From Thalassolituus hydrocarboniclasticus (GTDB lineage: Bacteria; Pseudomonadota; Gammaproteobacteria; Pseudomonadales; Oceanobacteraceae): DNA of 32,000 nucleotides. Made by a program: the position numbers and the translations under genes. Positions 433 to 32,000 of this stretch are shown here, piece after piece (within the stretch, counting starts at the first letter, position 1; each line of letters opens with the position of its first letter). The DNA lies in the NCBI RefSeq assembly GCF_025345565.1, contig NZ_CP054475.1:2844006-2876005 (forward strand), written 5' to 3'. The notes beneath the pieces were generated by a model. That model was not told the DNA's origin. It did no database searches and saw only the letters and a list, made by a program, of their open reading frames with translations.

Positions 433-738
433 TTACTGTATTTTGAACAGCTGTTCGAAATTTGAAATCGTCAGTATTTTCCGCACATCCTGGTTACAGT
501 TCACAATGCGTACGTCGGCGTTATCACCACCGGCATGATCCCTTAGCAGTAGTAACATTCCCAGCGCCGAACTATCCAGATAGGATGTTCCACCGAGATC
601 AACAACATAGCTTTGTACATCCGCCGCCATGTTTTCATAAGCATCACGGAATTCCTGATGTGCACTGAAGTCAAAACGTCCGTCGACTTTAATCGTCAGT
701 TCCCGCCCATTCCCTGCAAGAGATGCTTGTACAGTCAT
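433..738 (-). CDS. STAS-domain anti-sigma-factor antagonist (SpoIIAA/RsbV/HsbA-like), 101 aa
   Basis: The translation is MTVQASLAGNGRELTIKVDGRFDF...VVDLGGTSYLDSSALGMLLLL...ILTISNFEQLFKIQ. It carries the canonical phosphorylatable-serine motif DSSALG. I moved the start to the ATG at 738, which has a GGAGAA RBS 6 nt upstream. The 26 extra N-terminal residues in the ORF track look spurious. Confidence 0.8.
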   Translation of the reverse strand: MTVQASLAGNGRELTIKVDGRFDFSAHQEFRDAYENMAADVQSYVVDLGGTSYLDSSALGMLLLLRDHAGGDNADVRIVNCNQDVRKILTISNFEQLFKIQ

Positions 739-20246: not shown

Positions 20247-20711
20247 TCAGACAGAAATATGACTTTCCAGACGGGCATCGCTGACAGCTGTAACAGAAGG
20301 CGATGATGCGCTGCCATTCAGACCTTGCAGATATTCCTGACGGATACCATCCCAGCCCTGTTTAACTTCCAGCAATAAACTCATGACCTCATCAATCATG
20401 GCCAGATCATTCTGACTGGTGGCTTCCAGCAGACGCCGGTTCATATAGTCGTAAAGACGGTCAAGGTTTTGCGACAACTCACCACCCGCCGAATGATCCA
20501 GACTGCCCTGCAATGTCTGGATAATTTCCATTACCCGTCCCAGCAGATTGGCCTTGGTGTCCATCTCTTTGCGTTCGATGGCTCCTTTCGCCTGTGACAT
20601 ACGCGTCAGCGCTGCCTCCATTAACAATTGAATCAGGCGATGAGGATCGGCATCCAACACCTCGGAAGTCACGTTTACCTGCTGATATTGCTGCGCACCG
20701 CTCTTATACAT
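20247..20711 (-). CDS. fliS: Flagellin-specific export chaperone FliS
   Basis: 154 aa from the ATG at 20711, which has an AGGAGA RBS 7 nt upstream. The sequence begins MYKSGAQQYQQVNVTSEVLDADPHRLIQLLMEAALTRM and contains LDRLYDYMNRRLLEA, both typical of FliS. The 47 extra residues in the track ORF are rejected. Confidence 0.85.
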   Translation of the reverse strand: MYKSGAQQYQQVNVTSEVLDADPHRLIQLLMEAALTRMSQAKGAIERKEMDTKANLLGRVMEIIQTLQGSLDHSAGGELSQNLDRLYDYMNRRLLEATSQNDLAMIDEVMSLLLEVKQGWDGIRQEYLQGLNGSASSPSVTAVSDARLESHISV

Positions 20712-20748
20712 GTCACGTCTCCTGAATTCACAAAGGCCTGTTACCAGT

Positions 20749-20775
20749 ATTACGGCCGTACGGAGAATTTCTTTA
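20749..20775 (-). promoter_or_regulatory. Candidate sigma-28 (FliA) promoter for fliS
   Basis: The minus strand reads TAAAGAAA-N11-GCCGTAAT, against the consensus TAAAGTTT-N11-GCCGATAA. TAAAG and GCCG match perfectly and the spacing is exact. It ends 38 nt upstream of the fliS ATG. Confidence 0.4.
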
Positions 20776-20908
20776 GCCTCTGATTTAACAGACGGCCATG
20801 CCCAGTATTCCATAAAAACGGCAAGACCTCGCCGGACGGCAACCTGTAACACCCCCGATTGCCGCTATAGATATTCTCAAAGTCCTTAGTATTCAATGAG
20901 TTAGGAAA

Positions 20909-20923
20909 TGGCACGCATTGTGC
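20909..20923 (+). promoter_or_regulatory. Sigma-54-type promoter upstream of the TPR-methyltransferase gene
   Basis: The plus strand reads TGGCACGCATTGTGC. The -24 element TGGCACG is perfect and the -12 element is GTGC, at canonical spacing. The -12 element lies 44 nt upstream of the ATG at 20967. Confidence 0.5.
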
Positions 20924-20966
20924 TGATAGCCGGATTGTCAGTGCATTTTTTAATGAGGCTTCAATT

Positions 20967-22985
20967 ATGGCTAGCGCACAACTACAGACCGTCGCCCGCA
21001 ACGGTACAGGTGAATACCGCCACCTGTATGAACTGGCGAGCAAGCTGTACAGCGATGCGGTCGCACAGCAGGATGAACACCTGCTGCAGGAAGCCTGTGC
21101 GCTGGCAGAAGCAGCACAGCAGCTGCGCCCCGACAACCTTGCCGGATTAAATCTTCTTGCCCGGATTGAATTACAGCAGCACCATCTGGCGGCCGCGGAA
21201 TACTGGGTAAACCGTGGTCTGGCACTTAAACCAGACAGCGCCAGCCTGCTGTACAGTGCAGGCCATATTGCGCTGAGCCAGCAACAGCTGGATAAAGCCG
21301 AGGATTATTTCACCCGCTCCAGCCGTATCTCACGGGTGGCCACTAAAGCAGCCAACTTTCTTGCCCACGTTAAATTATTACAGGGCGATTATGTTGAAGC
21401 ATTCCGTCATTATCGTGAACTGGTCAAAACCCAGTCACGCGACAAACAGATCCGCAGTAAATTATTTGAATCCGCCTCACAGGTTATTGCAGATTTTTAT
21501 TCGGAAGAGCTGGAACAGGATCTGTTACGCTACCTCGACTTTACTGATACCGATCACAGCCAGTTACGCAGCCTGACCACCTCACTGCTGAAACATAAAT
21601 TACGGCTATCTGAAGCCGGATGTCCGCTTGAGCTGGAAACCATTGCCAGCGATAACCTGCTGTTAAAATCCCTGACCCGTTTTTATTTTTGCGACCCGCT
21701 GATTGAACGTCTGCTGCTGACGCTGAGAAAATCATTGTTATTATCCTGCAGCAGCAATCTTGCAATAAAAAAAGACCTGCTACCTCTGGTAACTTCGCTG
21801 GCGCACCAGTGTTCGCTGAATGAGTCCGTATGGTATACAACTACTCAGGAAGAAGCTCTGGTACAGCAGTTGGAAATGCTGTGCAGTAAAATGCTGAACA
21901 TCGATGAATTACAGGCAACCGATATTTATCCGGCTATGCTGCTGGTGCAAATGTACAAGCCGCTAATTCATTGTGAGTTTTTTCAGGCACTGACTCAGAA
22001 GAAACTGCAATGGCCAAAAATGATGGATAGTCTGGTTCGTTCGGCAGTCACTGAACAGCAGAACCTGAGTCGCCTTCTTGATACCATTCCAACGATTGGC
22101 ATCTGCGCCGACAGTACCTCAAAGAAAGTTCAGCAACAGTATAATCAGAATCCTTATCCACGCTGGACCGATATCGGTTACAGCCAGCCGGGCAATTATA
22201 AAACTGCGCTACAGTCTGCTTTTCCACAACATGAACTTCTGCCCCAAACAGACAATGGAACCCTGAACATTCTGGTAGCAGGCTGCGGCACAGGCCGCCA
22301 TGCTATTCGCCTTGCGCAATATTTCACGCAGGTAAAAGTCAGCGCTCTGGACCTGAGCCATAGCGCACTGGCTTATGCCAAATATCAGGCGGAGAAACGC
22401 CACTGCCATAATATTCACTTTATGCAGGGTGATATTCTGCAACTTGATAATCTGCGTGAAACTTTTGACGTAATAGAGTGCTCAGGTGTTTTACATCATA
22501 TGCACTCCCCCATCACCGGTCTGCGGGCATTAGCACAACAGCTGAAATCCGGCGGCGTAATCAAAATTGCGCTTTACAGTGCCACTGCGCGCCAGAAAAT
22601 CAGTGAGCTGCGTAAACTCTGGGGAAATAAACTACCAGGGAAACCTGCAGAAATGCGTCTGATAAGGGAAGCTCTGCTGCAGGGGTCTATCGAAGGTGAT
22701 TGGAAAGAGATCTATAATTCACCGGATTTTTACAGCCTGAGCGCCTGTCGTGATCTGCTGTTTCATGAGCAGGAGCATGTGTTTGATGTACTGGAATTAG
22801 AAGACTTTCTGGCCGGAGCCGGACTGGAATGGATTGGCATGTTGCCACCGCCCGACTCGCAGGAATTACTCAGCCTTACAGGTAAACACAGCAGCCGGAT
22901 TAGCCCCGAAGAATGGCACACGCTGGAACAGAACAACCCGCAACTCTTTGCCGGCATGTACCAGTTTTATGCACGTAAGCCTTAA
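20967..22985 (+). CDS. TPR-repeat protein fused to a class I SAM-dependent methyltransferase (substrate unknown)
   Basis: 672 aa. The N-terminal TPR-like repeats read LNLLARIELQQHHLAAAEYWVNRGLALKPDSASLLYSAGHIAL. The motif QQYNQNPYPRW precedes MTase motif I (LNILVAGCGTGRHA) and post-I/II motifs (VSALDLS, FDVIECSGVLHHM). Confidence 0.8.
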   Translation: MASAQLQTVARNGTGEYRHLYELASKLYSDAVAQQDEHLLQEACALAEAAQQLRPDNLAGLNLLARIELQQHHLAAAEYWVNRGLALKPDSASLLYSAGHIALSQQQLDKAEDYFTRSSRISRVATKAANFLAHVKLLQGDYVEAFRHYRELVKTQSRDKQIRSKLFESASQVIADFYSEELEQDLLRYLDFTDTDHSQLRSLTTSLLKHKLRLSEAGCPLELETIASDNLLLKSLTRFYFCDPLIERLLLTLRKSLLLSCSSNLAIKKDLLPLVTSLAHQCSLNESVWYTTTQEEALVQQLEMLCSKMLNIDELQATDIYPAMLLVQMYKPLIHCEFFQALTQKKLQWPKMMDSLVRSAVTEQQNLSRLLDTIPTIGICADSTSKKVQQQYNQNPYPRWTDIGYSQPGNYKTALQSAFPQHELLPQTDNGTLNILVAGCGTGRHAIRLAQYFTQVKVSALDLSHSALAYAKYQAEKRHCHNIHFMQGDILQLDNLRETFDVIECSGVLHHMHSPITGLRALAQQLKSGGVIKIALYSATARQKISELRKLWGNKLPGKPAEMRLIREALLQGSIEGDWKEIYNSPDFYSLSACRDLLFHEQEHVFDVLELEDFLAGAGLEWIGMLPPPDSQELLSLTGKHSSRISPEEWHTLEQNNPQLFAGMYQFYARKP

Positions 22986-23005
22986 TTTCTCTGCAGCAAC
23001 AGGAA

Positions 23006-23683
23006 TTACAGCTGCCACTGTATCGGTGCTTCACCACGGGAAATAAGGTAATCGTTAATACGTGAAAACTGGTGATTCCCGAAAAATCCGCGGTGCGCGG
23101 ATAACGGTGAAGGATGCACCGACTTCAGCACCAGGTGTTTCTGCGGATCAATGACGGCACCTTTTTTCTGCGCATAACTGCCCCAGAGTACAAATACCAA
23201 CCCTTCTCGCTGTTCATTCAGTGCACGGATAGCCGCATCGGTAAATTGCTCCCAGCCTTTGCCCTGATGTGATCCGGCATTGGCCTGTTCCACCGTCAGC
23301 GTTGCATTCAATAATAAAACGCCCTGATCAGCCCACGGGGTCAGATCACCACTGCCACTCATATGCAGACCAAGGTCACCTTCAATTTCTTTAAAAATAT
23401 TCACCAGCGACGGTGGAATTTTTACCCCAGGCTGCACCGAAAAACTTAAACCATGAGCCTGCCCCGGACCGTGGTACGGGTCCTGACCAATAATCACCAC
23501 ACGCACCTGCTGAAAGGGCGTGTGATTAAAGGCATTAAAAATCTGCGGACCCGGTGGAAAAATAACCTTACCCGCCGCCTTCTCTGCCTTGAGAAATTCG
23601 CGCAGATTATGCATATAAGGCTGCTCCAGTTCAGAACCAAGCACTGCCTGCCAGGATGGATGTAATTCTCCGGCTTTTCCCAT
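23006..23683 (-). CDS. ung: Uracil-DNA glycosylase
   Basis: 225 aa from the ATG at 23683, with an AAGGAT RBS. Motifs are [16 protein letters not shown] and [11 protein letters not shown]. Confidence 0.9.
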
Positions 23684-23740
23684 GATGAATATCCTTAAAA
23701 ACTGTCTGTTAACTGTCCGGGTTGTCTGTGGCAACAGGCC

Positions 23741-23771
23741 CTAACAAAACAGGCAGCCGAAGCTGCCTGTT
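23741..23771 (-). terminator. Rho-independent terminator downstream of lysS
   Basis: A perfect 10-bp stem, AACAGGCAGC-cgaa-GCTGCCTGTT (23748-23771), is followed on the minus strand by TTTTGTTAG. Confidence 0.6.
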
Positions 23772-23790
23772 GTTATCGTCTGCTCAGCGC

Positions 23791-25323
23791 TTAATCCACC
23801 AGAGGCTTCATGTGCGGGAACAGAATAACGTCTTTAATGGTGTGGCTGTTGGTAAACAGCATCACCAGACGGTCGATACCAATACCTTCACCAGCAGTTG
23901 GTGGCAGACCGTATTCCAGCGCGCGCACGTAGTCTTCGTCGTAGTGCATCGCTTCATCATCGCCGGCGTCTTTTTCTTCAACCTGCTTACGGAAACGGGC
24001 AGCCTGATCTTCGGCATCATTAAGCTCAGAGAAGCCATTGGCCAGCTCACGCCCGCCGACAAAGAATTCAAAGCGGTCGGTCACAAACGGGTTGTCGTCA
24101 TTGCGGCGCGCCAGTGGTGACACTTCCCACGGATATTCGGTAATAAAGGTCGGCTGATCCAGCTTCTCTTCGGCGGTGGCTTCAAAGATTTCACACACCA
24201 GCTTACCGGCACCCCAGCCTGCTTCTTTCGGCCCCAGATGAATACCCACGCTGCGGGCATACTCTTTCAGGGTTTCGATGTTGTTTTCAGCATCGCGCAG
24301 AACAGCCGCGTCCATTTCCGGATTATATTTGAGGATGGCATCGACCATGCTCATACGGGTAAATGGCTGGGCAAAGTCGTAGGTCGCATCGCCGTATTCC
24401 AGCGTAGTGGTACCCAGTACGCTTTCCGCCAGGAAGCGCAGCATGGCTTCCGTGGTATCCATCATATCGCGGTAATCGGCATAGGCCTGATAGAACTCGA
24501 TCATGGTGAATTCAGGATTGTGACGGGTGCTCAGACCTTCGTTACGGAAGTTACGGTTAATCTCGAACACGCGGTCAAAACCGCCCACCACCAGACGCTT
24601 CAGGTACAGCTCCGGTGCAATGCGCAGGAACATATCGATGCCCAGTGCATTGTGGTGGGTTTCAAACGGCTTGGCCGATGCACCACCGGGAATAGTTTGC
24701 AGCATCGGGGTTTCCACTTCCATAAAGCCGCGCTGCGACAGGAAGTAACGGATACCTTCAATAATTTTTGAGCGGATCAGGAAGGTACGGCGGGTATCTT
24801 CGTTAATGATCAGGTCAACGTAGCGCTGACGGTATTTCATTTCCTGGTCGGCCAGACCGTGGAATTTATCCGGCAGCGGACGCAGTGCCTTGGTCAGGAT
24901 GCGGAAGTTGCTGAGCTCGTCGATATCGACATACAGCTCGCCCTTGCCGGACAGGTGTAACGTACCGGAGCCGGCAACGATGTCACCCAGATCGAGCATC
25001 TGCCAGGCTTCGCTTTCTTTCTGCATGCCTTTGGCCATGTAAATCTGGATCGAGCCGGTGCTGTCCTGAATACCCACAAAAGGACCACCGCGACGCATCA
25101 CACGTCCGGCAACAGCAACACGGATACCGGCAGCAGCCAGTTCTTCCTGACTCTTGCTGCCGTGTTCGGCTTTCAGTTCACCGGCCAGATGTTCACGACG
25201 GAAATCGTTCGGGTGAGCATTTGATTTACAGTTGCTGCGCAGCTGTTCAAGCTTGGCACGGCGCTCGGCGATCAGTTTGTTCTCATCCTGAGCTGGCTGC
25301 TCGGTCACTTTGTTGTCTGTCAT
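23791..25323 (-). CDS. lysS: Lysine--tRNA ligase (class II)
   Basis: 510 aa. It has an OB anticodon-binding fold and class II motifs ([32 protein letters not shown]). It lies 38 nt downstream of prfB, the arrangement of the conserved prfB-lysS operon. Confidence 0.95.
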
Positions 25324-25361
25324 GGTGTTACCCTAAAAATTAGATGATACGAAGCGTGTGG

Positions 25362-26457
25362 TTACAGGCCTTTTTTCAGGCTGGCTTCGATAAACTGGTC
25401 AAGATCGCCGTCCAGTACCGCCTGGGTATTACGGGTTTCAACCCCGGTACGCAGGTCTTTGATACGGGCATCGTCAAGCACGTAAGAACGGATCTGGCTG
25501 CCCCAGCCGATATCCGACTTGGTATCTTCCAGCGCCTGAGCCTCAGCATTACGCTTCTGCATTTCCAGCTCATACAGCTTGGCTTTCAGCTGCTTCATCG
25601 CCTGGTCTTTGTTCTTGTGCTGCGAACGGTCATTCTGGCACTGAGTCACGATACCGGACGGCATGTGGGTAATACGCACCGCCGATTCGGTCCGGTTAAC
25701 GTGCTGACCACCGGCACCGGAGGCGCGGTAAACGTCGATACGCAGGTCGGCCGGGTTAATCTCGATATCGATATTGTCGTCCACTTCCGGCGATACGAAC
25801 ACCGATGAGAATGACGTATGGCGACGGTTGCCGGAGTCAAACGGGCTCTTACGTACCAGACGGTGTACACCGGTTTCGGTACGTAACCAGCCATAGGCAT
25901 ATTCACCCTCGACGCGGATAGTAGCGCCTTTGATGCCCGCGACTTCGCCTTCAGACACTTCCATCAGCTCGCCTTTGAAGCCATGCGCTTCGATCCAGCG
26001 CAGGTACATACGCAGCATCATGTTCGCCCAGTCCTGGGCTTCAGTGCCGCCGGAGCCGGACTGGATTTCAACGTAGCAGTTGTTCGGGTCCAGTTCGCCG
26101 GAGAACATACGGCGGAATTCCAGCACTTCCAGTTCTTTCTGCAGGGCAGCCAGTTCGGCGCGGATATCTTCTACCGAGTTTTCGTCTTCTTCCTCAACGG
26201 CCATGTCCAGCAGGTCACGGGCGTCACTCAGGCCGGTATCCAGGGTATCAATGGTTTTGACCACATTTTCCAGAGCAGAGCGTTCTTTGCCCAGCTCCTG
26301 CGCGCGTTCCGGGTTATCCCAGACGTCGCCCTGTGACAGTTCCTGTTCTACTTCTTCCAGACGCTCAAGCTTGTTGGCGTAGTCAAAGATACCCCCTAAG
26401 CACGTCGGTGCGCGCTGTCAGGTCTTTGATGGTTTCGAGGATCGGATTAATTTCCAA
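25362..26457 (-). CDS. prfB: Peptide chain release factor 2, expressed through a programmed +1 frameshift
   Basis: Frame 0 runs from the TTG at 26457 (M)[23 protein letters not shown] to the TGA at 26385..26383. The +1 frame continues [34 protein letters not shown] and joins the track ORF 25362..26264. The SPF (RKSPFDSG) and GGQ (SGAGGQHVN) motifs are present. Confidence 0.9.
26382..26397 (-). other. prfB programmed +1 ribosomal frameshift site
   Basis: The minus strand reads CTT AGG GGG TAT CTT TGA C. An internal SD-like AGGGGG lies 3 nt before the slippery CUU-UGA-C, identical in layout to the classical RF2 autoregulatory site. Confidence 0.85.
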
Positions 26458-26778
26458 TGTAATACCCTGTTGTCATCCGGCAGACAGGCCGGTCGGAGTC
26501 AGTACGGCCAGCACTCAGGGCGCTGACGACAAAAAAGAGGCAGCATTTTACAGAAGTCAGGCGCCGGATGCGAGTGTGTTTCGGGGGGAGTCAGCGCAGC
26601 AAGACGGCTCAGCCGGGGCCTGAAGAACACAGCGGCTACAGGCAATGATTGACCATCCCGCTGTGGATGTTGCCACCGTTTATGGAACAGACAGGAAATA
26701 TACAATAAGGCTATTGCAAATCCTTCGCATTAAGATTACATTGCAAATCAAACTGATTCGCATCCGGATTTGATTACC

Positions 26779-26973
26779 ATGTACGTATGTTTGTGCAAAG
26801 CCGTTACCCAACAACAGATTGAGCAGGCCGTCGAGCAAGGCGACAGCTACGCCCAGATCCGTCAGAAGCTGGGTGTTGGTACTGACTGCGGCTGCTGTGG
26901 CCAGAGCGCCAAGCAGATGATCCGTGAGCATACATCCCGCCTGCCGCCCTGCGAGTTCGCAGTAGCCAGCTGA
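26779..26973 (+). CDS. bfd: Bacterioferritin-associated ferredoxin (Bfd-like [2Fe-2S] protein)
   Basis: 64 aa from the ATG at 26779, beginning MYVCLCKAVTQQQIEQAV and containing GTDCGCCG. The cysteine pattern is C-x-C...C-x2-C, and length and N-terminus match Bfd. The track ORF starts 9 nt earlier at a TTG. Confidence 0.8.
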   Translation: MYVCLCKAVTQQQIEQAVEQGDSYAQIRQKLGVGTDCGCCGQSAKQMIREHTSRLPPCEFAVAS

Positions 26974-26993
26974 GAAAACTGACATTCAGATGC

Positions 26994-27023
26994 AAAAAAA
27001 GAGCGCCCTGGGCGCTCTTTTTT
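26994..27023. terminator. Bidirectional rho-independent terminator between bfd (+) and the SnoaL-like gene (-)
   Basis: The sequence is AAAAAAA-GAGCGCC-ctg-GGCGCTC-TTTTTT. The 7-bp GC stem is flanked by an A-run and a T-run, so it can work in both directions. Confidence 0.7.
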
Positions 27024-27051
27024 ATTGGCTGACAAGGACAACACTGAGCCT

Positions 27052-27489
27052 TTATCCGGCTGCCCGTACCGGACCATTTCCCCAGTCCTGAGCCATCTGA
27101 CGCTGCAGCCCGGCCAGATCGACCAGTGTATTCTGGCTGCAGACTCTGCCCCGGCGGATTTCCCAGGTAGACACTGCGCTGAAGCTAATCACTTTATTAT
27201 TGGGAGGAAAACCGAACAGGGGTTTCTGAAAGGAGCCGCTGAATGTCGATATCGTTATAACGCGATCATCTTCAGCCATGATGTCTTCAACCGACACATC
27301 AAGATCGGCAATCGAAGTGCGGATTTGTTTGACGTATTCAACGAAGGTATCAATGTCTTTAAAACCTTCGGCAAAGGTCGTGTGGTAAACAAAATCGGGA
27401 GTCGCAATCTGACGCAGCAAATTGAAACGGCCGGTATTCCAGGACAGATTAATAAAGTGTTCGACGAGTTGTTTGTTGCGCTCTGACAT
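27052..27489 (-). CDS. SnoaL-like / NTF2-fold protein (predicted ester cyclase family)
   Basis: 145 aa. It has the NKQLVEHFINLSWNTG... pattern, a central ADLDVSVEDIMAEDDRVI and TWEIRRGRV near the end, all typical of SnoaL-like cyclase-fold proteins. The assignment is by motif recollection only. Confidence 0.6.
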   Translation of the reverse strand: MSERNKQLVEHFINLSWNTGRFNLLRQIATPDFVYHTTFAEGFKDIDTFVEYVKQIRTSIADLDVSVEDIMAEDDRVITISTFSGSFQKPLFGFPPNNKVISFSAVSTWEIRRGRVCSQNTLVDLAGLQRQMAQDWGNGPVRAAG

Positions 27490-27658: not shown

Positions 27659-30600
27659 TTATTTCTTGGAGTTATTCATTGCTTCAAACTGCTGCTTCAC
27701 ATAATCCAGAGTAGTATTAAGAGTGGAAATAATGGAGTCGTTGTACAGGAACTGGGCTTTAAGCCGCGCCTCCTGCGCAGAAATCCGCGCTTCCATACGG
27801 CTGCGATCTTCATCAACCGCTTCCAGTTCATCATCCAGCCCCGACTGTTTAACCCCGATGACACTCTTCTGGCCATTAAGGAAACTGTCCATAATATCTT
27901 TCAGTTGATCGCCGAAGCCGGTGATATAGGTCACACTGCCACGCTCGCCGACATTGCCACCGGTCACTTTCAGACGCAGACCGGAAGCATCATCGATCGT
28001 ACCCACCTGGTCTTTACCCGGCTCGCCATCACCCGCGCCCCGGACAAAACCAAAAACAGCAGCGGCTTCATTGGAAAAATCCATTATTTCAACAGACGAT
28101 GACGCACCGGTTGAAGCAGAAATAATGCCGAATTTATTATTGGCAAAGGATGCAGGGTCATCTGTAAATTCTACTTTTACAGCAATACTTTCATCTTTAA
28201 ATGCTGCGGTATCATTAATCGCCTGCTGCAGTGCCTGAGCCAGAGTTGCACCACTGTTGTAGGTCGCAGGCTGATTTAATGTTACTTCGGCTTCAACACC
28301 ATCGATCTTAATTTTAAAGGTGTTATTGGTTGCATCGATATTCACCGGGGTCGAAAAGTCCGCCGCTTCATTACCGATGTAATAGCCATTACTGGCTTTC
28401 ACATTACCATCTACCGCTCGCAGGAACTGGCCGCTACCCGTTGCTTCAATACCGTTGATGGTACCGGCAACGTCTTTGCCTTTAGCCGTTGATGGCGAGT
28501 ACTGACTGACATCCTGCAGGCCGAGGAAAGCGATGGATGAGCTGTCCAGTCCGGTAAAACCAACAGCTGTGCCCTGACCACCAATGGTGATATTCAGGGA
28601 GCCCAGATCTGATTCCGGATCGTAAACATAATCAACCACGGCATCCAGATCGTAGCCAAAGGTTCTGGAGGTGTCGGTCAGGCCGAGTCCGTCGTAACCA
28701 TTACTGACGGTTTCAGCCGCAAGGCCCAGCGAGCTTAGCGCTGTACCGCCAAGGTTTTTAATTTCCAGAGCGGCACCGGAGCCAAAGGTCGCAGCGGTTT
28801 TAACACCGTCTTTACTCTGGGTTTCAAAGTACAGCTGACCGCTGTCATCAACGCGGGCTTTCACATCTCCGGCAGCAAATTGCCCGGTCGCAGCCAGTGC
28901 CGTATCCAGCGCCTGCTGAATAACAATCAGATTAGAATCGGCATTATTACTGCCCGTTGTGCCATCACCGCTTACATCCACATTGATGTCGACGCCATCC
29001 AGTGTCAGGGTGAAGGTTGCATTCTGCCCGCCACTGAAATCAATACCGGCAGAAATATCGGCAAAACTGCTGCTTTGTGCACCACGGCCGTCGCTGACAA
29101 CTTCAATATATTCTTCGTGTCCGGTTGCTACCGTAGTTAATTTCAACCCGGTTCCGTCCAGACTGGCGCTGACCACACCTGCACCAAAAGCATTATCCAG
29201 GGCGGTCTGAATATCGACGATGTTGTCACCGGAGTCGCTGTTCACCAGCACATCTTTTTCCACACCCGACACATTCAGGCGGAAGCCGGCATTAGTCGCC
29301 GAAAAATCAATGTTGGTGCTGATATCACGGGTTGCCGTTGCAGTTTCCGCGCCTTTAACCGCACCGGCAAAATTAGCATCAGCGGCCAGCGTAATATTTA
29401 ACTGATTCTGAATCTCTGCCGCTAACGCATCGCCTGTTGCATAAGTACCGGCCGGAACAGATACCTTGGTGGCACTTTCGATACCATCGACCTGTACGTT
29501 AAATTCTACCGGTGAGCCAAAGGTCAGCCCCGGATCTTTACCGTTAGTCTGTACGCCCTGAGTACCATTAAGGCCCAGCTGCACATCCGAAGTATTAGTG
29601 CCAACCGCAGTCAGCTCAATACTGCGCGCCGTGCCTTCGGCCACGGTTTCAAAAATCAGATAGCCGTTGTCATCAAAGGACGCCGTTACCTGGCCATTCA
29701 GTGCGGTTGCATCAATAGCAGTCTGGATAGCCTGCAGGGTATCTTTCCTGTCACCAAATACCCCATCACCATTCAGATCCTGGCCATTGGCATTCTGATT
29801 AACCACAACAGCTACCGGACCATTACCATCAACGTCGAGAGAAAAGCTCGCGTTACTGACCGAAAAATTGATTCCGGTACTGGCAGAAACTGAGGTATTA
29901 CCAATCTGAGTAGTCGCACCTTTACCATTAAAAGCTTCGGCATTCAGCGTGGTCAGCTCGACGCCTTGATAGGTACCCTGACCAAGCTTATTAAAGCCCA
30001 GCGTGTTGGCCAGATTAGGATCGACAGCCGCAAAATACACCTGTGACTCGGAGCCGTATTTGTTTGAGGTAATGGAAAAGTTTTTATCCGTAGCACTGTA
30101 ATCAACCGAAACACTGTGCCCATATTTAGACAGGGTTTCACTGCTGTTAATCTGCAGCGCCAATTGCTTGGCCAGATCCTCACCAGAGCTGTAACTGCCA
30201 TGGGTCAGCTCAATACTGGCGGTCTGACCATTTACGTTAATACGGAAATTATCGTTGCTTTCATCAATCACAACCGGCGAAGAAAAATCCAGCGAAGACA
30301 GTGATCCACCAACGTATTTAGCCTGACTCGCTAATTGAGTAATATTGACGTCATAGGTGCCCGGCTTGGTATTAATCGAGTCGTTGACATAAGTAATCTG
30401 GCTGTCGGTGGTGGTACCGGATTTAGCCAGCAGGCCCACAATAGACGCCCGGTCTTCTGTCATCGCTTTTTTGAATTTGGCCGTATTAAAATCCAGCTGG
30501 TAGTCATTATCCCGGTTGGTATCAACCCCCAGCTCGGTCAGTGAGCGGTATTTACCGGTTAAGCCAACGATAGGTTCGCTGATCATCGCGCGGATCTGCG

Positions 30601-31609
30601 ACATCATCGTACGGATGGTAGAGTCACCCAGTAACAGGCCCGCCTGTTGCTTGTCCACGTCATAACCGGACAGATCATCAACAAAGGTTTTCAGCTCATT
30701 ATAGGCATCGACAAAACCCTGAATACTTTCCGACAGTTTGTCGGTATCGGCACTGACTGTAACGCTGATGTTTTTACCGACATCGGCATTTTTAAGATTA
30801 AGGGTCACCCCTTTAATCACTTCATCTACGGAGTTACTGCTGCGGGTGATGGTCAGGCCGTTAACATTCAGCTGCGCGTCTTCGCCGCGGCTGGTCTGGC
30901 TCATATTGGCGGCAGTATTCTGGTTTTCATTAAAGGCCAGTGCACCCAGCCCGCCACTGAGCATCGCGCCGGACTCGTCCAGCGCGACAATACGCATGGC
31001 ATTTTCAGCCCCGGTTTCTTCCGAGGTCATCAGCAGACGATAGCCGCTGCCATCGTTGATGATACTGGCGGTTACACCCATATCGGCATTATTGATCGCG
31101 TCGCGGATACCGCTGAGGGTGCGGTTGGAGTCGTCGATAGTAATGGTTTTGCCGAGACGATCCGGATTCAGGTCTTGGCTGACAAAATTGCCGCCGGCGC
31201 CATAGGTGATATCACCAAAGGTAAATACCAGTTTTCCGATACCAATAATTTCGTCAAAGCTGCTGTAGGTTTGTGTTGCCAGGGAATGGGATTTAGCCGT
31301 GTTCAGCACTTCGACATTATAGGTGCCCGGCTCGGACAGGCTGGAGGTTGTTGCGGTCAGAATATCTTCATCAGACGACGTCGCCGTGGTTGAGCTTACC
31401 AGACTCGGGCTGGACAAATTGTTAGCCGCAGACTGTACCTTCGCCATCATCGACTGAATTTCACCATAGGCGGTGATTTTGGCTTCCACCAGCTGCTGAC
31501 GGCTATCCAGACGCAGCGATGTTGCCTCTTTCTCTGCACTGATGATTTTTTCCACCAGATCCGTAGTCAGAACTCCTGACCCTAATCCCAGTGATTCTAT
31601 CGACGCCAT
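27659..31609 (-). CDS. fliD: Flagellar filament cap protein FliD (hook-associated protein 2), giant 1316-aa form
   Basis: The N-terminus (SLGLGSGVLTTDLVEKIISAEKEATSLRLDSRQQL), the canonical IN-type unit (ITIDDSNRTLSGIRDAINNADMGVTASIINDGSGYRLLMTSEETG), LLLGDSTIRTMMSQIR and the C-terminal coiled coil (RMEARISAQEARLKAQFLYNDSIISTLNTTLDYVKQQ) are all FliD-like. A GGGGGAA RBS precedes it, and it lies directly downstream of flaG. Confidence 0.85.
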   Translation of the reverse strand: MASIESLGLGSGVLTTDLVEKIISAEKEATSLRLDSRQQLVEAKITAYGEIQSMMAKVQSAANNLSSPSLVSSTTATSSDEDILTATTSSLSEPGTYNVEVLNTAKSHSLATQTYSSFDEIIGIGKLVFTFGDITYGAGGNFVSQDLNPDRLGKTITIDDSNRTLSGIRDAINNADMGVTASIINDGSGYRLLMTSEETGAENAMRIVALDESGAMLSGGLGALAFNENQNTAANMSQTSRGEDAQLNVNGLTITRSSNSVDEVIKGVTLNLKNADVGKNISVTVSADTDKLSESIQGFVDAYNELKTFVDDLSGYDVDKQQAGLLLGDSTIRTMMSQIRAMISEPIVGLTGKYRSLTELGVDTNRDNDYQLDFNTAKFKKAMTEDRASIVGLLAKSGTTTDSQITYVNDSINTKPGTYDVNITQLASQAKYVGGSLSSLDFSSPVVIDESNDNFRINVNGQTASIELTHGSYSSGEDLAKQLALQINSSETLSKYGHSVSVDYSATDKNFSITSNKYGSESQVYFAAVDPNLANTLGFNKLGQGTYQGVELTTLNAEAFNGKGATTQIGNTSVSASTGINFSVSNASFSLDVDGNGPVAVVVNQNANGQDLNGDGVFGDRKDTLQAIQTAIDATALNGQVTASFDDNGYLIFETVAEGTARSIELTAVGTNTSDVQLGLNGTQGVQTNGKDPGLTFGSPVEFNVQVDGIESATKVSVPAGTYATGDALAAEIQNQLNITLAADANFAGAVKGAETATATRDISTNIDFSATNAGFRLNVSGVEKDVLVNSDSGDNIVDIQTALDNAFGAGVVSASLDGTGLKLTTVATGHEEYIEVVSDGRGAQSSSFADISAGIDFSGGQNATFTLTLDGVDINVDVSGDGTTGSNNADSNLIVIQQALDTALAATGQFAAGDVKARVDDSGQLYFETQSKDGVKTAATFGSGAALEIKNLGGTALSSLGLAAETVSNGYDGLGLTDTSRTFGYDLDAVVDYVYDPESDLGSLNITIGGQGTAVGFTGLDSSSIAFLGLQDVSQYSPSTAKGKDVAGTINGIEATGSGQFLRAVDGNVKASNGYYIGNEAADFSTPVNIDATNNTFKIKIDGVEAEVTLNQPATYNSGATLAQALQQAINDTAAFKDESIAVKVEFTDDPASFANNKFGIISASTGASSSVEIMDFSNEAAAVFGFVRGAGDGEPGKDQVGTIDDASGLRLKVTGGNVGERGSVTYITGFGDQLKDIMDSFLNGQKSVIGVKQSGLDDELEAVDEDRSRMEARISAQEARLKAQFLYNDSIISTLNTTLDYVKQQFEAMNNSKK
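28070..30289 (-). repeat. At least six divergent IN-motif-like coding modules inside fliD
   Basis: The motif [DNT]F[SG]-x(3-12)-F-x-[ILV]-x-[VIL]-[DNS]-G starts at FliD residues 441, 581, 696, 768, 857 and 1084. Each copy is followed 15-30 aa later by an amphipathic helix such as LAKQLALQINSS, LQAIQTAIDAT, LAAEIQNQLNIT, IVDIQTALDNAF, IVIQQALDTAL or LAQALQQAINDT. Confidence 0.65.
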
Positions 31610-31746: not shown

Positions 31747-32000
31747 CTAAACTTGCGCGCTGAACAATAAAGATGGTTCCTCATCATTCAATTTCTGCGC
31801 CAGTTCCAGAGCCAGCTCACTGGGAATCTGTCGGATCAGTTCCGATGATGCCCGGTCATAGACGCGGATAATGGTTTTACCGCTATCTTCGTCCAGCTGG
31901 AAATCCAGTGTTCTTTCTGTTTGCTGTACATACTCATTGATACGGGAAATTGCTTCTCTGACCTGATCTTTATTCAGTTCCGCAACTTTCTCAGTTCCAA
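31747..32000 (-). CDS. flaG: FlaG-family flagellar protein (3' part; the start lies outside the window)
   Basis: My own minus-strand translation gives ...GTEKVAELNKDQVREAISRINEYVQQTERTLDFQLDEDSGKTIIRVYDRASSELIRQIPSELALELAQKLNDEEPSLLFSAQV*. The L-F-x-DE-x-G-x-x-I-x-V-x-D-x-x-x-x-E-x-IRQIP-x-E pattern is the FlaG signature. The gene is absent from the ORF track. Confidence 0.75.
   Translation of the reverse strand, partial: GTEKVAELNKDQVREAISRINEYVQQTERTLDFQLDEDSGKTIIRVYDRASSELIRQIPSELALELAQKLNDEEPSLLFSAQV

Follow-up and report, generated by a model that had tools for sequence, protein, structure and literature searches.

The DNA analyzed here is a stretch of 32,000 nucleotides from Thalassolituus hydrocarboniclasticus (contig NZ_CP054475.1, positions 2,844,006 to 2,876,005), referred to below as the window. 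On its minus strand, at 27659-31609, lies a single open reading frame (ORF) for a giant form of FliD, the cap protein of the flagellar filament; FleQ, FliF, FliG and FliI are also encoded in the window. At 1316 residues, this FliD is about three times the usual size. An initial annotation had flagged the part at 28070-30289 of the minus strand, i.e., residues 441-1180, as an amplified array of highly diverged modules. All coordinates are window positions, and residues are numbered as in the 1316-residue FliD of T. hydrocarboniclasticus, to which the protein encoded in the window is 100% identical.

Two Pfam domains are recognized in the protein. FliD_N (PF02465) scores 72.3 bits at residues 11-108, above its gathering cut-off of 24.8, and FliD_C (PF07195) scores 147.3 bits against a cut-off of 25.4. 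The latter match is split; residues 242-406 correspond to profile positions 1-170 of 236, and the remainder of the profile is found at the extreme C-terminus. The NCBIfam equivalog models for FliD match residues 1-401 and the C-terminus, all of them below their own cut-offs; the best, NF005955, reaches 250 bits of the required 387, because an insertion of about 840 residues breaks the model. The solved structures of E. coli and Salmonella FliD align to residues 1-401 and 1255-1314, and the C-terminal helices are matched by PDB entries 5gna, 5krw and 6ch2. Because FliD_C is split and the NCBIfam models and PDB chains align only to the two ends, we conclude that the ORF encodes a FliD into which about 840 residues (about 396-1234) have been inserted. 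The insertion site is in domain D1, directly before the helices that run into the C-terminal D0. The parts of the protein are listed here in N- to C-terminal order, with residues and evidence in brackets.

27659-31609, minus strand: fliD, giant filament cap protein of 1316 residues (ORF; Pfam FliD_N and split FliD_C; NCBIfam FliD models)
30896-31264, minus strand: canonical D3 or Flagellin_IN unit (116-238; Flagellin_IN 27 bits when scanned alone; module hidden Markov model (HMM) 16.7 bits)
30299-30424, minus strand: segment 'pre', a D2a-like beta hairpin with PGTYDV, start of the insertion (396-437; hhalign against 77-105, probability 70%; DNA repeat D6)
29984-30298, minus strand: module 1 (M1), type A (438-542; BLAST, hhalign, module HMM, alignment A2, AlphaFold)
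29564-29878, minus strand: module 2 (M2), type B, the nearest to the canonical D3/IN unit (578-682; BLAST, Pfam, hhalign, module HMM)
29339-29533, minus strand: N-terminal half of module 3 (M3a), type A (693-757; hhalign against M1 and M6, 96.5-97.1%; half of the secondary-structure pattern)
29081-29317, minus strand: module 4 (M4), type B, nested in module 3 (765-843; BLAST, hhalign, module HMM)
28718-29050, minus strand: module 5 (M5), type B, nested in module 3 (854-964; BLAST, hhalign, module HMM)
28505-28654, minus strand: segment 'X1', the C-terminal half of module 3 (986-1035; hhalign of the chimera M3a+X1; contiguous homologue in protein P0139)
28370-28504, minus strand: segment 'X2', D2b-like (GKDVAGTINGIEA) (1036-1080; conserved between the modules in FliDs with at least two modules)
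28040-28369, minus strand: module 6 (M6), type A (1081-1190; BLAST, hhalign, module HMM; folds alone in prediction)
27908-28039, minus strand: segment 'post', end of the insertion (1191-1234; recurs behind the last module in other FliDs)
27662-27907, minus strand: C-terminal D1/D0 helices of FliD (1235-1316; rest of FliD_C; PDB 5gna, 5krw, 6ch2)

The insertion consists largely of related modules of about 80-110 residues, laid out as strand-strand-helix-strand-strand-strand. A self-BLAST of the whole FliD gave only the identity match, and was replaced by masked sliding-window queries. These revealed significant self-similarity, with E-values (E) down to 2e-12 for residues 1084-1161 against 441-519 (36% identity, 49.7 bits). 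Further matches pair 752-839 with 842-924 and with 563-668 (both at about 3e-7), 577-655 with 853-930 (1e-6), 697-742 with 1085-1136 (8e-6), and 1084-1112 with 762-790 (4e-5). In profile-profile comparisons (hhalign), with segments cut from an alignment of 114 full-length FliD orthologues, M1 and M6 match with a probability of 99.6% over 99 columns, M2 and M5 with 98.7%, M4 and M5 with 98.3%, M2 and M4 with 98.0%, M1 and M3 with 96.5%, and M3 and M6 with 97.1%. The cross-type pairs M2-M6, M4-M6 and M5-M6 reach 93-95%. On these probabilities, the modules fall into two sequence subtypes, namely A (M1, M3 and M6) and B (M2, M4 and M5).

When an HMM was trained on the six modules of 12 orthologues and applied to the window protein, all six were found, at 439-540, 578-681, 694-755, 765-845, 854-964 and 1082-1189. 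The six copies that the initial annotation had placed at residues 441, 581, 696, 768, 857 and 1084 thus coincide in their starts with the HMM-defined modules, and BLAST, hhalign and the HMM agree with it that the array is an amplified and diverged one, in which modules 1 and 6 are the most alike. All six copies are related; the copy at 696, however, is the N-terminal half of a module only. The motif layout that had been described is visible both in alignment A2 and in the secondary structure predicted by AlphaFold. The consensus of A2 begins with (I/L)DFS...N.xF.(L/I).V(D/N)G....V.(V/L)..., continues into the helix L..xIQ.AI(D/N), and ends with ...V.A..D..G.L.(F/I).(T/S)...G....(I/V)E(I/V)......LG(L/F).

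The incomplete copy at 696 shows, in the AlphaFold model, only the first half of the secondary-structure pattern, and residues 988-1030 (LDAVVDYVYDPESDLGSLNITIGGQGTAVGFTGLDSSSIAFLGLQ) follow the pattern seen in the C-terminal halves of M1 and M6. Compared directly by hhalign with all other parts of the protein, 975-1040 matched nothing better than the second half of M1 (E 0.013). When residues 690-750 were joined to 986-1035, the match to M1 and M6 grew from 42-46 to 92-95 columns, and the score from about 59 to about 68. The same extension was seen with the positive controls, i.e., the second halves of M2 and M5; with six negative-control segments the match stayed at 38-46 columns. In addition, P0139, a 1068-residue FliD without M4 and M5, has a contiguous module at 685-785. 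The chimera HMM matches this module from end to end with 31.6 bits, compared with 13.6 for the HMM of M1, 19.1 for M6, 11.3 for M2, 0.9 for M4 and 4.3 for M5; the HMM of X1 alone matches the second half of the module with 20.9 bits. Because of the chimera comparisons and this unsplit homologue, we conclude that module 3 is, as judged from sequence, split, with M4 and M5 nested inside it. The split accounts for most of the region at 950-1045 that had been listed as unrecognized. That is, the irregular spacing of the modules did reflect something unaccounted for, but not a new domain: 986-1035 is the second half of module 3, and 1036-1080 is part of a conserved, probably D2-like scaffold.

This scaffold comprises pre, X2 and post. 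All three segments recur in FliDs with few modules, and pre is found in FliDs carrying from one to nine. Their motifs echo those of the canonical D2, with PGTYDV corresponding to PGTYNV, GKDVAGTINGIEA to GEDAQLNVNGLTI, and GLRLKVTGGNVG to GVTLNLKNADVG. A chimera of pre, X2 and post aligns with D2a+D2b colinearly across the junction (48 columns, E 1.2e-4, probability 55%). Comparison of the canonical D2b profile with the insert, on the other hand, gave no significant match, and the D2-like reading stays weak for that reason. Nevertheless, pre, X2 and post probably form a second D2-like scaffold that carries the modules, in agreement with the Foldseek matches of the whole insert to FliD heads.

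We also compared the modules with the canonical D3 of the same protein. The canonical unit was left out of the training set of the module HMM, and scores 16.7 bits on it; all of 2000 composition-matched shuffles score lower, with a maximum of 11.7. By hhalign, D3 (141-223) matches M2 (606-682) over 77 columns, with E 6e-5 and a probability of 66%, and the type-B HMMs also match the canonical D3 of other FliDs. These results support the claim that the modules share the layout of the canonical unit at 154-200. In alignment A2, IQxAI(D/N) or LQIN occurs in the helix of every module, and the strand-helix-strand order is confirmed by AlphaFold.

The proposed likeness to the IN motif is the weakest of the main claims. 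Scanned alone, the canonical unit passes the Flagellin_IN threshold (PF07196, 22.7 bits) with 27.0 bits. Among the insert modules, only M2 (16.1 bits) and M4 (10.7 bits) give a match in this protein. In a Pfam scan of 42 module sequences from across the orthologues (E<=1), Flagellin_IN is the most frequent match (11 of the 42, best E 6.8e-5), followed by DUF3383 (8 of the 42, best E 1e-4; M1 alone, E 4e-4). When the modules were aligned with genuine IN repeats of flagellins from the clade, the two best matches were in the expected register, and weak (E 0.002 and 0.03). The insert modules of this protein stay below the family threshold, and the match to the IN repeats of the clade is marginal. 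As now modeled, membership of the modules in Flagellin_IN is sub-threshold by sequence score. Modules and family share the layout of a strand, a helix with I-(N/D/Q) and a strand, but the Pfam model covers about 55 residues, whereas the module is a full domain of 80-110. On these weaker but significant scores, we conclude that the modules are homologous to the D3 unit of FliD, which Pfam files under Flagellin_IN.

The array is old. Tandem Repeats Finder detected no tandem array in the DNA, and the longest direct repeat is 32 nt, with 78% identity. In a scan with one genome per species, 62 loci encode the complete, colinear insert, with identities down to 41%, in Thalassolituus, Bacterioplanes, Bacterioplanoides, Oceanobacter, Parathalassolituus, Oleispira, Bermanella, Oceaniserpentilla, Venatoribacter and Saccharospirillum (the last at 41%). 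Wherever the gene is complete, FliD in these loci is 1298-1331 residues long. In comparison with T. alkanivorans, the insert has a ratio of nonsynonymous to synonymous substitution rates (dN/dS) of 0.041, as against 0.044 in the N-terminal and 0.094 in the C-terminal core; the values for single modules lie between 0.015 and 0.057. Given the lack of DNA repeats, the 62 colinear loci and the low dN/dS, we conclude that the array is old and under purifying selection as strong as that on the core of FliD. The initial annotation had arrived at the same view, of copies too diverged for recent duplication in an array that has been maintained. Shortened FliD ORFs were found in three loci, namely L029 (694 residues), L059 (698) and L060 (677). 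In L059 and L060 the contig stops where the FliD match does; in L029, where the flanks are complete and tblastn matches the full length, a frameshift or an assembly error is the more likely reason for the short FliD.

Among 1.84 billion proteins, the module profile matches 1348 representatives at E<=0.001 and 367 at E<=1e-10. FliDs make up about half of the best 150 matches, and their insertion lies at the same site. These carry one module (701 residues), two (about 780-830), three to four (about 900-1070), five (about 1166), six (about 1300) or nine (1860). Their architectures include pre-M1-post (701 residues), pre-M1-X2-M6-post (about 830), the form with an unsplit third module (1068), and a form lacking only M2 (P0124, 1171); in P0125, extra modules stand beside the canonical D3. 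A sample of the non-FliD matches, annotated with Pfam, contains flagellins of 649-2382 residues with 2-13 modules, an FlgE hook protein with three, an RTX protein (P0257) and some unannotated giants. The extremes (P0145, P0127, P0135, P0148 and P0197) include a 2382-residue flagellin with 13 modules, an 1860-residue FliD with nine, and unannotated proteins of 2684, 6694 and 6873 residues with seven to nine. P0222, a protein with SdrD-B repeats within the best 150, is probably spurious; a local re-scan showed no module in it.

The structure of residues 381-1260 was modeled with AlphaFold2, using 41 orthologues. The model has a mean predicted local distance difference test score (pLDDT) of 88.6 and a predicted template-modeling score (pTM) of 0.63; every module in it has 2-4 short strands, a helix of 13-19 residues and three strands, often followed by a short helix. 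Predicted by itself, module 6 folds into a compact domain (pLDDT 86, pTM 0.80). The best Foldseek match of the whole insert is D2-D5 of H. pylori FliD (6iwy, E 5.8e-8), followed by C. jejuni FliD, D2/D3 of P. aeruginosa FliC, and D2-D3 of E. coli, Salmonella and Serratia FliD; the target-normalized template-modeling score (TM) against the E. coli and Serratia D2-D3 is about 0.40. For single modules, the matches in the PDB are non-significant, namely phage sheath proteins at TM 0.54-0.56 and FliD D3 regions at TM 0.36-0.46, and BFVD returned modest matches to phage tail-sheath and small phage proteins. Searched by sequence, the PDB gave no match to either the insert or the module profile; an alignment of C. 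jejuni FliD that apparently reached residue 539 was discarded as unsupported by these searches. The model of module 6 resembles the surface insertion domain of myophage tail sheaths (TM 0.56-0.64), with weak sequence matches that include DUF3383. PDB entries 8kee, 8fvg and 8env are among these likenesses, as is a penton protein of a giant virus. On the predicted model, tubular assemblies may share such a 'decoration' fold.

The clade that carries the insert is also one of giant flagellins. Giant flagellins and filaments of at least 30 nm have been reported in it, in Bermanella and Oleibacter, with Thalassolituus and Oleispira among the particularly giant flagellins (PMC6248924). The same paper raises the question of whether other flagellar components are correspondingly large, without mention of FliD; in the literature that we searched, FliD and these genera are nowhere mentioned together. 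A flagellin of 732-1361 residues lies upstream in each of the 51 clade loci whose upstream flank is long enough, in the order flagellin-flaG-fliD. Outside the clade, a 1408-residue FliD stands beside a 1393-residue flagellin, a 916-residue FliD beside a 704-residue flagellin, and a 781-residue FliD beside flagellins of 495 and 675 residues. The largest flagellins of the clade (1273-1361 residues; Bermanella, Oceanobacter, Oleispira and T. marinus; loci L042, L050, L061, L004, L045, L026 and L022) contain two to six modules, flanked by canonical IN repeats; the Bermanella-type flagellins of L042, L050 and L061 have four each. The Thalassolituus flagellins of 1030-1060 residues have none. Because the modules of the largest flagellins match the generic module HMM better than the HMM of any specific FliD module, they are not recent transfers from fliD. 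They could be the 'DX insert' described by Thomson et al.

How does this insertion compare with known enlargements of FliD and flagellin? The FliD of H. pylori has two extra head domains, D4 and D5, with folds that resemble D2 and D3 (PMC8306008). This protein (PDB 6IWY) is thus likewise enlarged by D2/D3-like domains, and is the best Foldseek match of the insert; it differs in having two extra domains, as opposed to a scaffold and six modules (about 840 residues) in T. hydrocarboniclasticus, in showing no detectable sequence similarity to the insert, and in that module nesting has not been described for it. D4 of C. jejuni FliD is inserted in D1, at the periphery of the cap and far from the flagellin-folding cavity (PMC7316729, PMC12221982). 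It too lies within the D1 helix bundle (PDB 6SIH, 9GSX), but is a single domain, detected neither by the module HMM nor by searches with the insert. The giant flagellins of the Oceanospirillales belong to the same clade, are encoded by the adjacent gene, and have likewise evolved by duplication of internal domains with subsequent insertion, giving split domains (PMC6248924); they are, however, the filament subunit and not the cap, and vary widely in length, whereas FliD is fixed. In the flagellin of Geovibrio thiophilus, D4 and D5 reuse a FliD-head-type domain, duplicated into its own loop (PMC11532411), but this domain is related to D2 of FliD rather than to the D3/IN-like module. The surface insertion domains of phage tail sheaths (e.g., E217, PDB 8FVG; DUF3383) have a similar small alpha/beta fold, at the TM values given for module 6, without a statistically secure match to the module and in a different biological context.

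Extra FliD head domains, as well as domain reuse and nested duplication in flagellar outer domains, are therefore known already. The Thalassolituus-clade FliD is an extreme variant with internal nesting, linked to the clade of giant flagellins and fixed throughout a whole family. No description of its insert architecture was found in the literature searched, and databases annotate the gene simply as FliD. If pre, X2 and post do form a D2-like domain, the whole insertion is a duplicated and overgrown copy of the D2-D3 'head'. Because FliDs elsewhere show intermediate forms, a stepwise origin by ancient duplication and nesting is strongly indicated. In its final form, the architecture is fixed throughout a family of marine gammaproteobacteria.

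By analogy with C. jejuni D4, which sits in the same domain, D1, and is peripheral, the insert would lie at the periphery of the cap. The five copies in the cap most likely form an outer ring or skirt around it. This ring would occupy the radial shell in which the outer domains of giant flagellins sit in a thick filament, and could contact, cover or template these domains as each new flagellin is added. It would be built from the same family of modules of which flagellin outer domains are made in other bacteria. In function, the most likely role that we infer is a radial enlargement of the cap that matches thick filaments. We hold this account as a whole, i.e., the identity of the modules, their ancient duplication and nesting, and an outer ring around the cap that meets the outer domains of giant flagellins, with moderate confidence. 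We are more doubtful of a broader proposition, which seems to us possible but rather less than even in its chances: that the cap co-evolves in outer mass with the filament, with five copies of the nested six-module insert as a second, outer tier of the cap that templates or chaperones the lattice formed by the outer domains of giant flagellins, and that the module is a building-block family shared by FliD, flagellin and hook.

Several points weigh against the account. The functional step, and the choice between a ring and a stalk, go beyond the comparisons themselves, and the nesting is read from sequence. The scores behind the D2-like nature of pre, X2 and post are weak (probability 55%), and a single module has no significant fold match in the PDB (best E 0.08; TM 0.4-0.56). 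The trend of FliD size with flagellin size outside the clade comes from three loci. Within the clade, FliD is nearly constant (1298-1331 residues) while the neighboring flagellin spans 732-1361; there is thus no simple scaling of the cap with flagellin size. Finally, the module HMM gave no match to the 1060-residue flagellin of the nearest complete relative (L001), so the outer domains of cap and filament in the Thalassolituus lineage covered here are not of the same family. This result also rules out, for Thalassolituus, the notion that the cap copies the outer domains of its own flagellin.

The main rival to an enlargement of the cap is a tip adhesin, i.e., a surface-interaction stalk of beads on a string that binds surfaces, particles or oil-water interfaces and is unrelated to flagellin size. 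FliD acts as an adhesin in several pathogens, and the module occurs also in an RTX-type secreted protein (P0257) and resembles surface-exposed domains of phage tail sheaths. For D4 and D5 of H. pylori FliD, a link with virulence and antigenicity has been suggested (PMC8306008). It is the constant length of FliD beside a variable flagellin that keeps this reading alive. However, in Pfam scans of the protein and of the modules no known binding domain or motif turned up; the purifying selection is very strong and even throughout, and FliD keeps its length from genus to genus, unlike typical, variable adhesins; and the nested domains, together with a pTM of 0.63 over 880 residues, point to a compact body and not to a loose string. 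We therefore regard a tip adhesin as unlikely, though to be taken seriously.

A different doubt concerns the source of the type-A modules. They could derive from an unrelated domain, e.g., a surface domain of a phage tail sheath, with their likeness to IN repeats due to convergence in layout. DUF3383 is indeed weakly matched by 8 of the 42 modules (best E 1e-4) and by M1 (E 4e-4), the best folds for M6 are those of phage sheaths (TM 0.56-0.64), above D3 of FliD (0.40-0.43), and the match to the IN repeats of clade flagellins is marginal. Types A and B are nevertheless mutually related (probability 93-95%), type B provides a link to the canonical D3, Flagellin_IN remains the most frequent Pfam match, and all of these domains could belong to one superfamily; an unrelated source is in our judgment quite improbable. 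As to chance similarity or low-complexity composition in a protein rich in G, S, T, A and D, the composition is biased and some pairs are weak, such as X1 with the second half of M1 (E 0.013). This explanation is refuted by E 2e-12 in composition-corrected BLAST, hhalign probabilities of up to 99.6%, the shuffle control, 367 database proteins at E<=1e-10, and the same predicted fold in each module.

The giant FliD bears on the question of Thomson et al. 2018 on other large components; for the cap, the answer is yes, with threefold size, fixed length and core-like constraint. It offers a testable hypothesis of how the cap copes with flagellin outer domains that far exceed the Salmonella folding chamber. 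The series of intermediates (one, two, three, five and six modules, with a domain nested in its own relative) illustrates the growth of axial flagellar proteins. The module itself represents a widespread domain family, hardly seen by the current Pfam models. This family comprises more than 1300 clusters, and has neither a dedicated Pfam model, nor one that passes its threshold, nor a solved structure detectable by sequence. If the broader proposition is true, it is the common building block of outer domains and is shared, distantly, with surface domains of phage tail sheaths.

The flagellar context flagellin-flaG-fliD...fliS is complete in the orthologous locus L001, from Thalassolituus sp. 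LLYu03, where the order is maf, flagellin (1060 residues), flaG, fliD (1320 residues) and SnoaL; the window shows the 3' end of flaG. Ordinarily fliS adjoins fliD. Here the two are parted by SnoaL, prfB, lysS and other genes, which is unusual: the flagellar cluster is interrupted at 20247-27489, between fliD and fliS/fleQ, and the same arrangement is found in L001. The neighboring genes are as follows.

31747-32000, minus strand: 3' end of flaG, upstream of fliD (translation; FlaG at the same place in L001)
27052-27489: SnoaL-like gene, between fliD and fliS/fleQ
23791-25323: lysS, between fliD and fliS/fleQ
23006-23734: UDG-superfamily gene, between fliD and fliS/fleQ
20967-22985, plus strand: gene for a 672-residue protein with tetratricopeptide repeats (TPR) and an S-adenosylmethionine (SAM) methyltransferase, between fliD and fliS/fleQ

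The protein encoded at 20967-22985, among flagellar genes, combines TPR repeats and a class I SAM methyltransferase in one chain. Similar methyltransferases adjoin fliD, fliS and fliT in an unrelated metagenomic locus (L064), and the protein may be a flagellin-modifying enzyme. The interrupting genes also include prfB (release factor 2; 25362-26420, minus strand), with the classical CTTTGAC site for programmed +1 frameshifting at about 26388; the ORF as listed begins only at position 38 of the PCRF profile. This frameshift is an ordinary and well-known feature of prfB.

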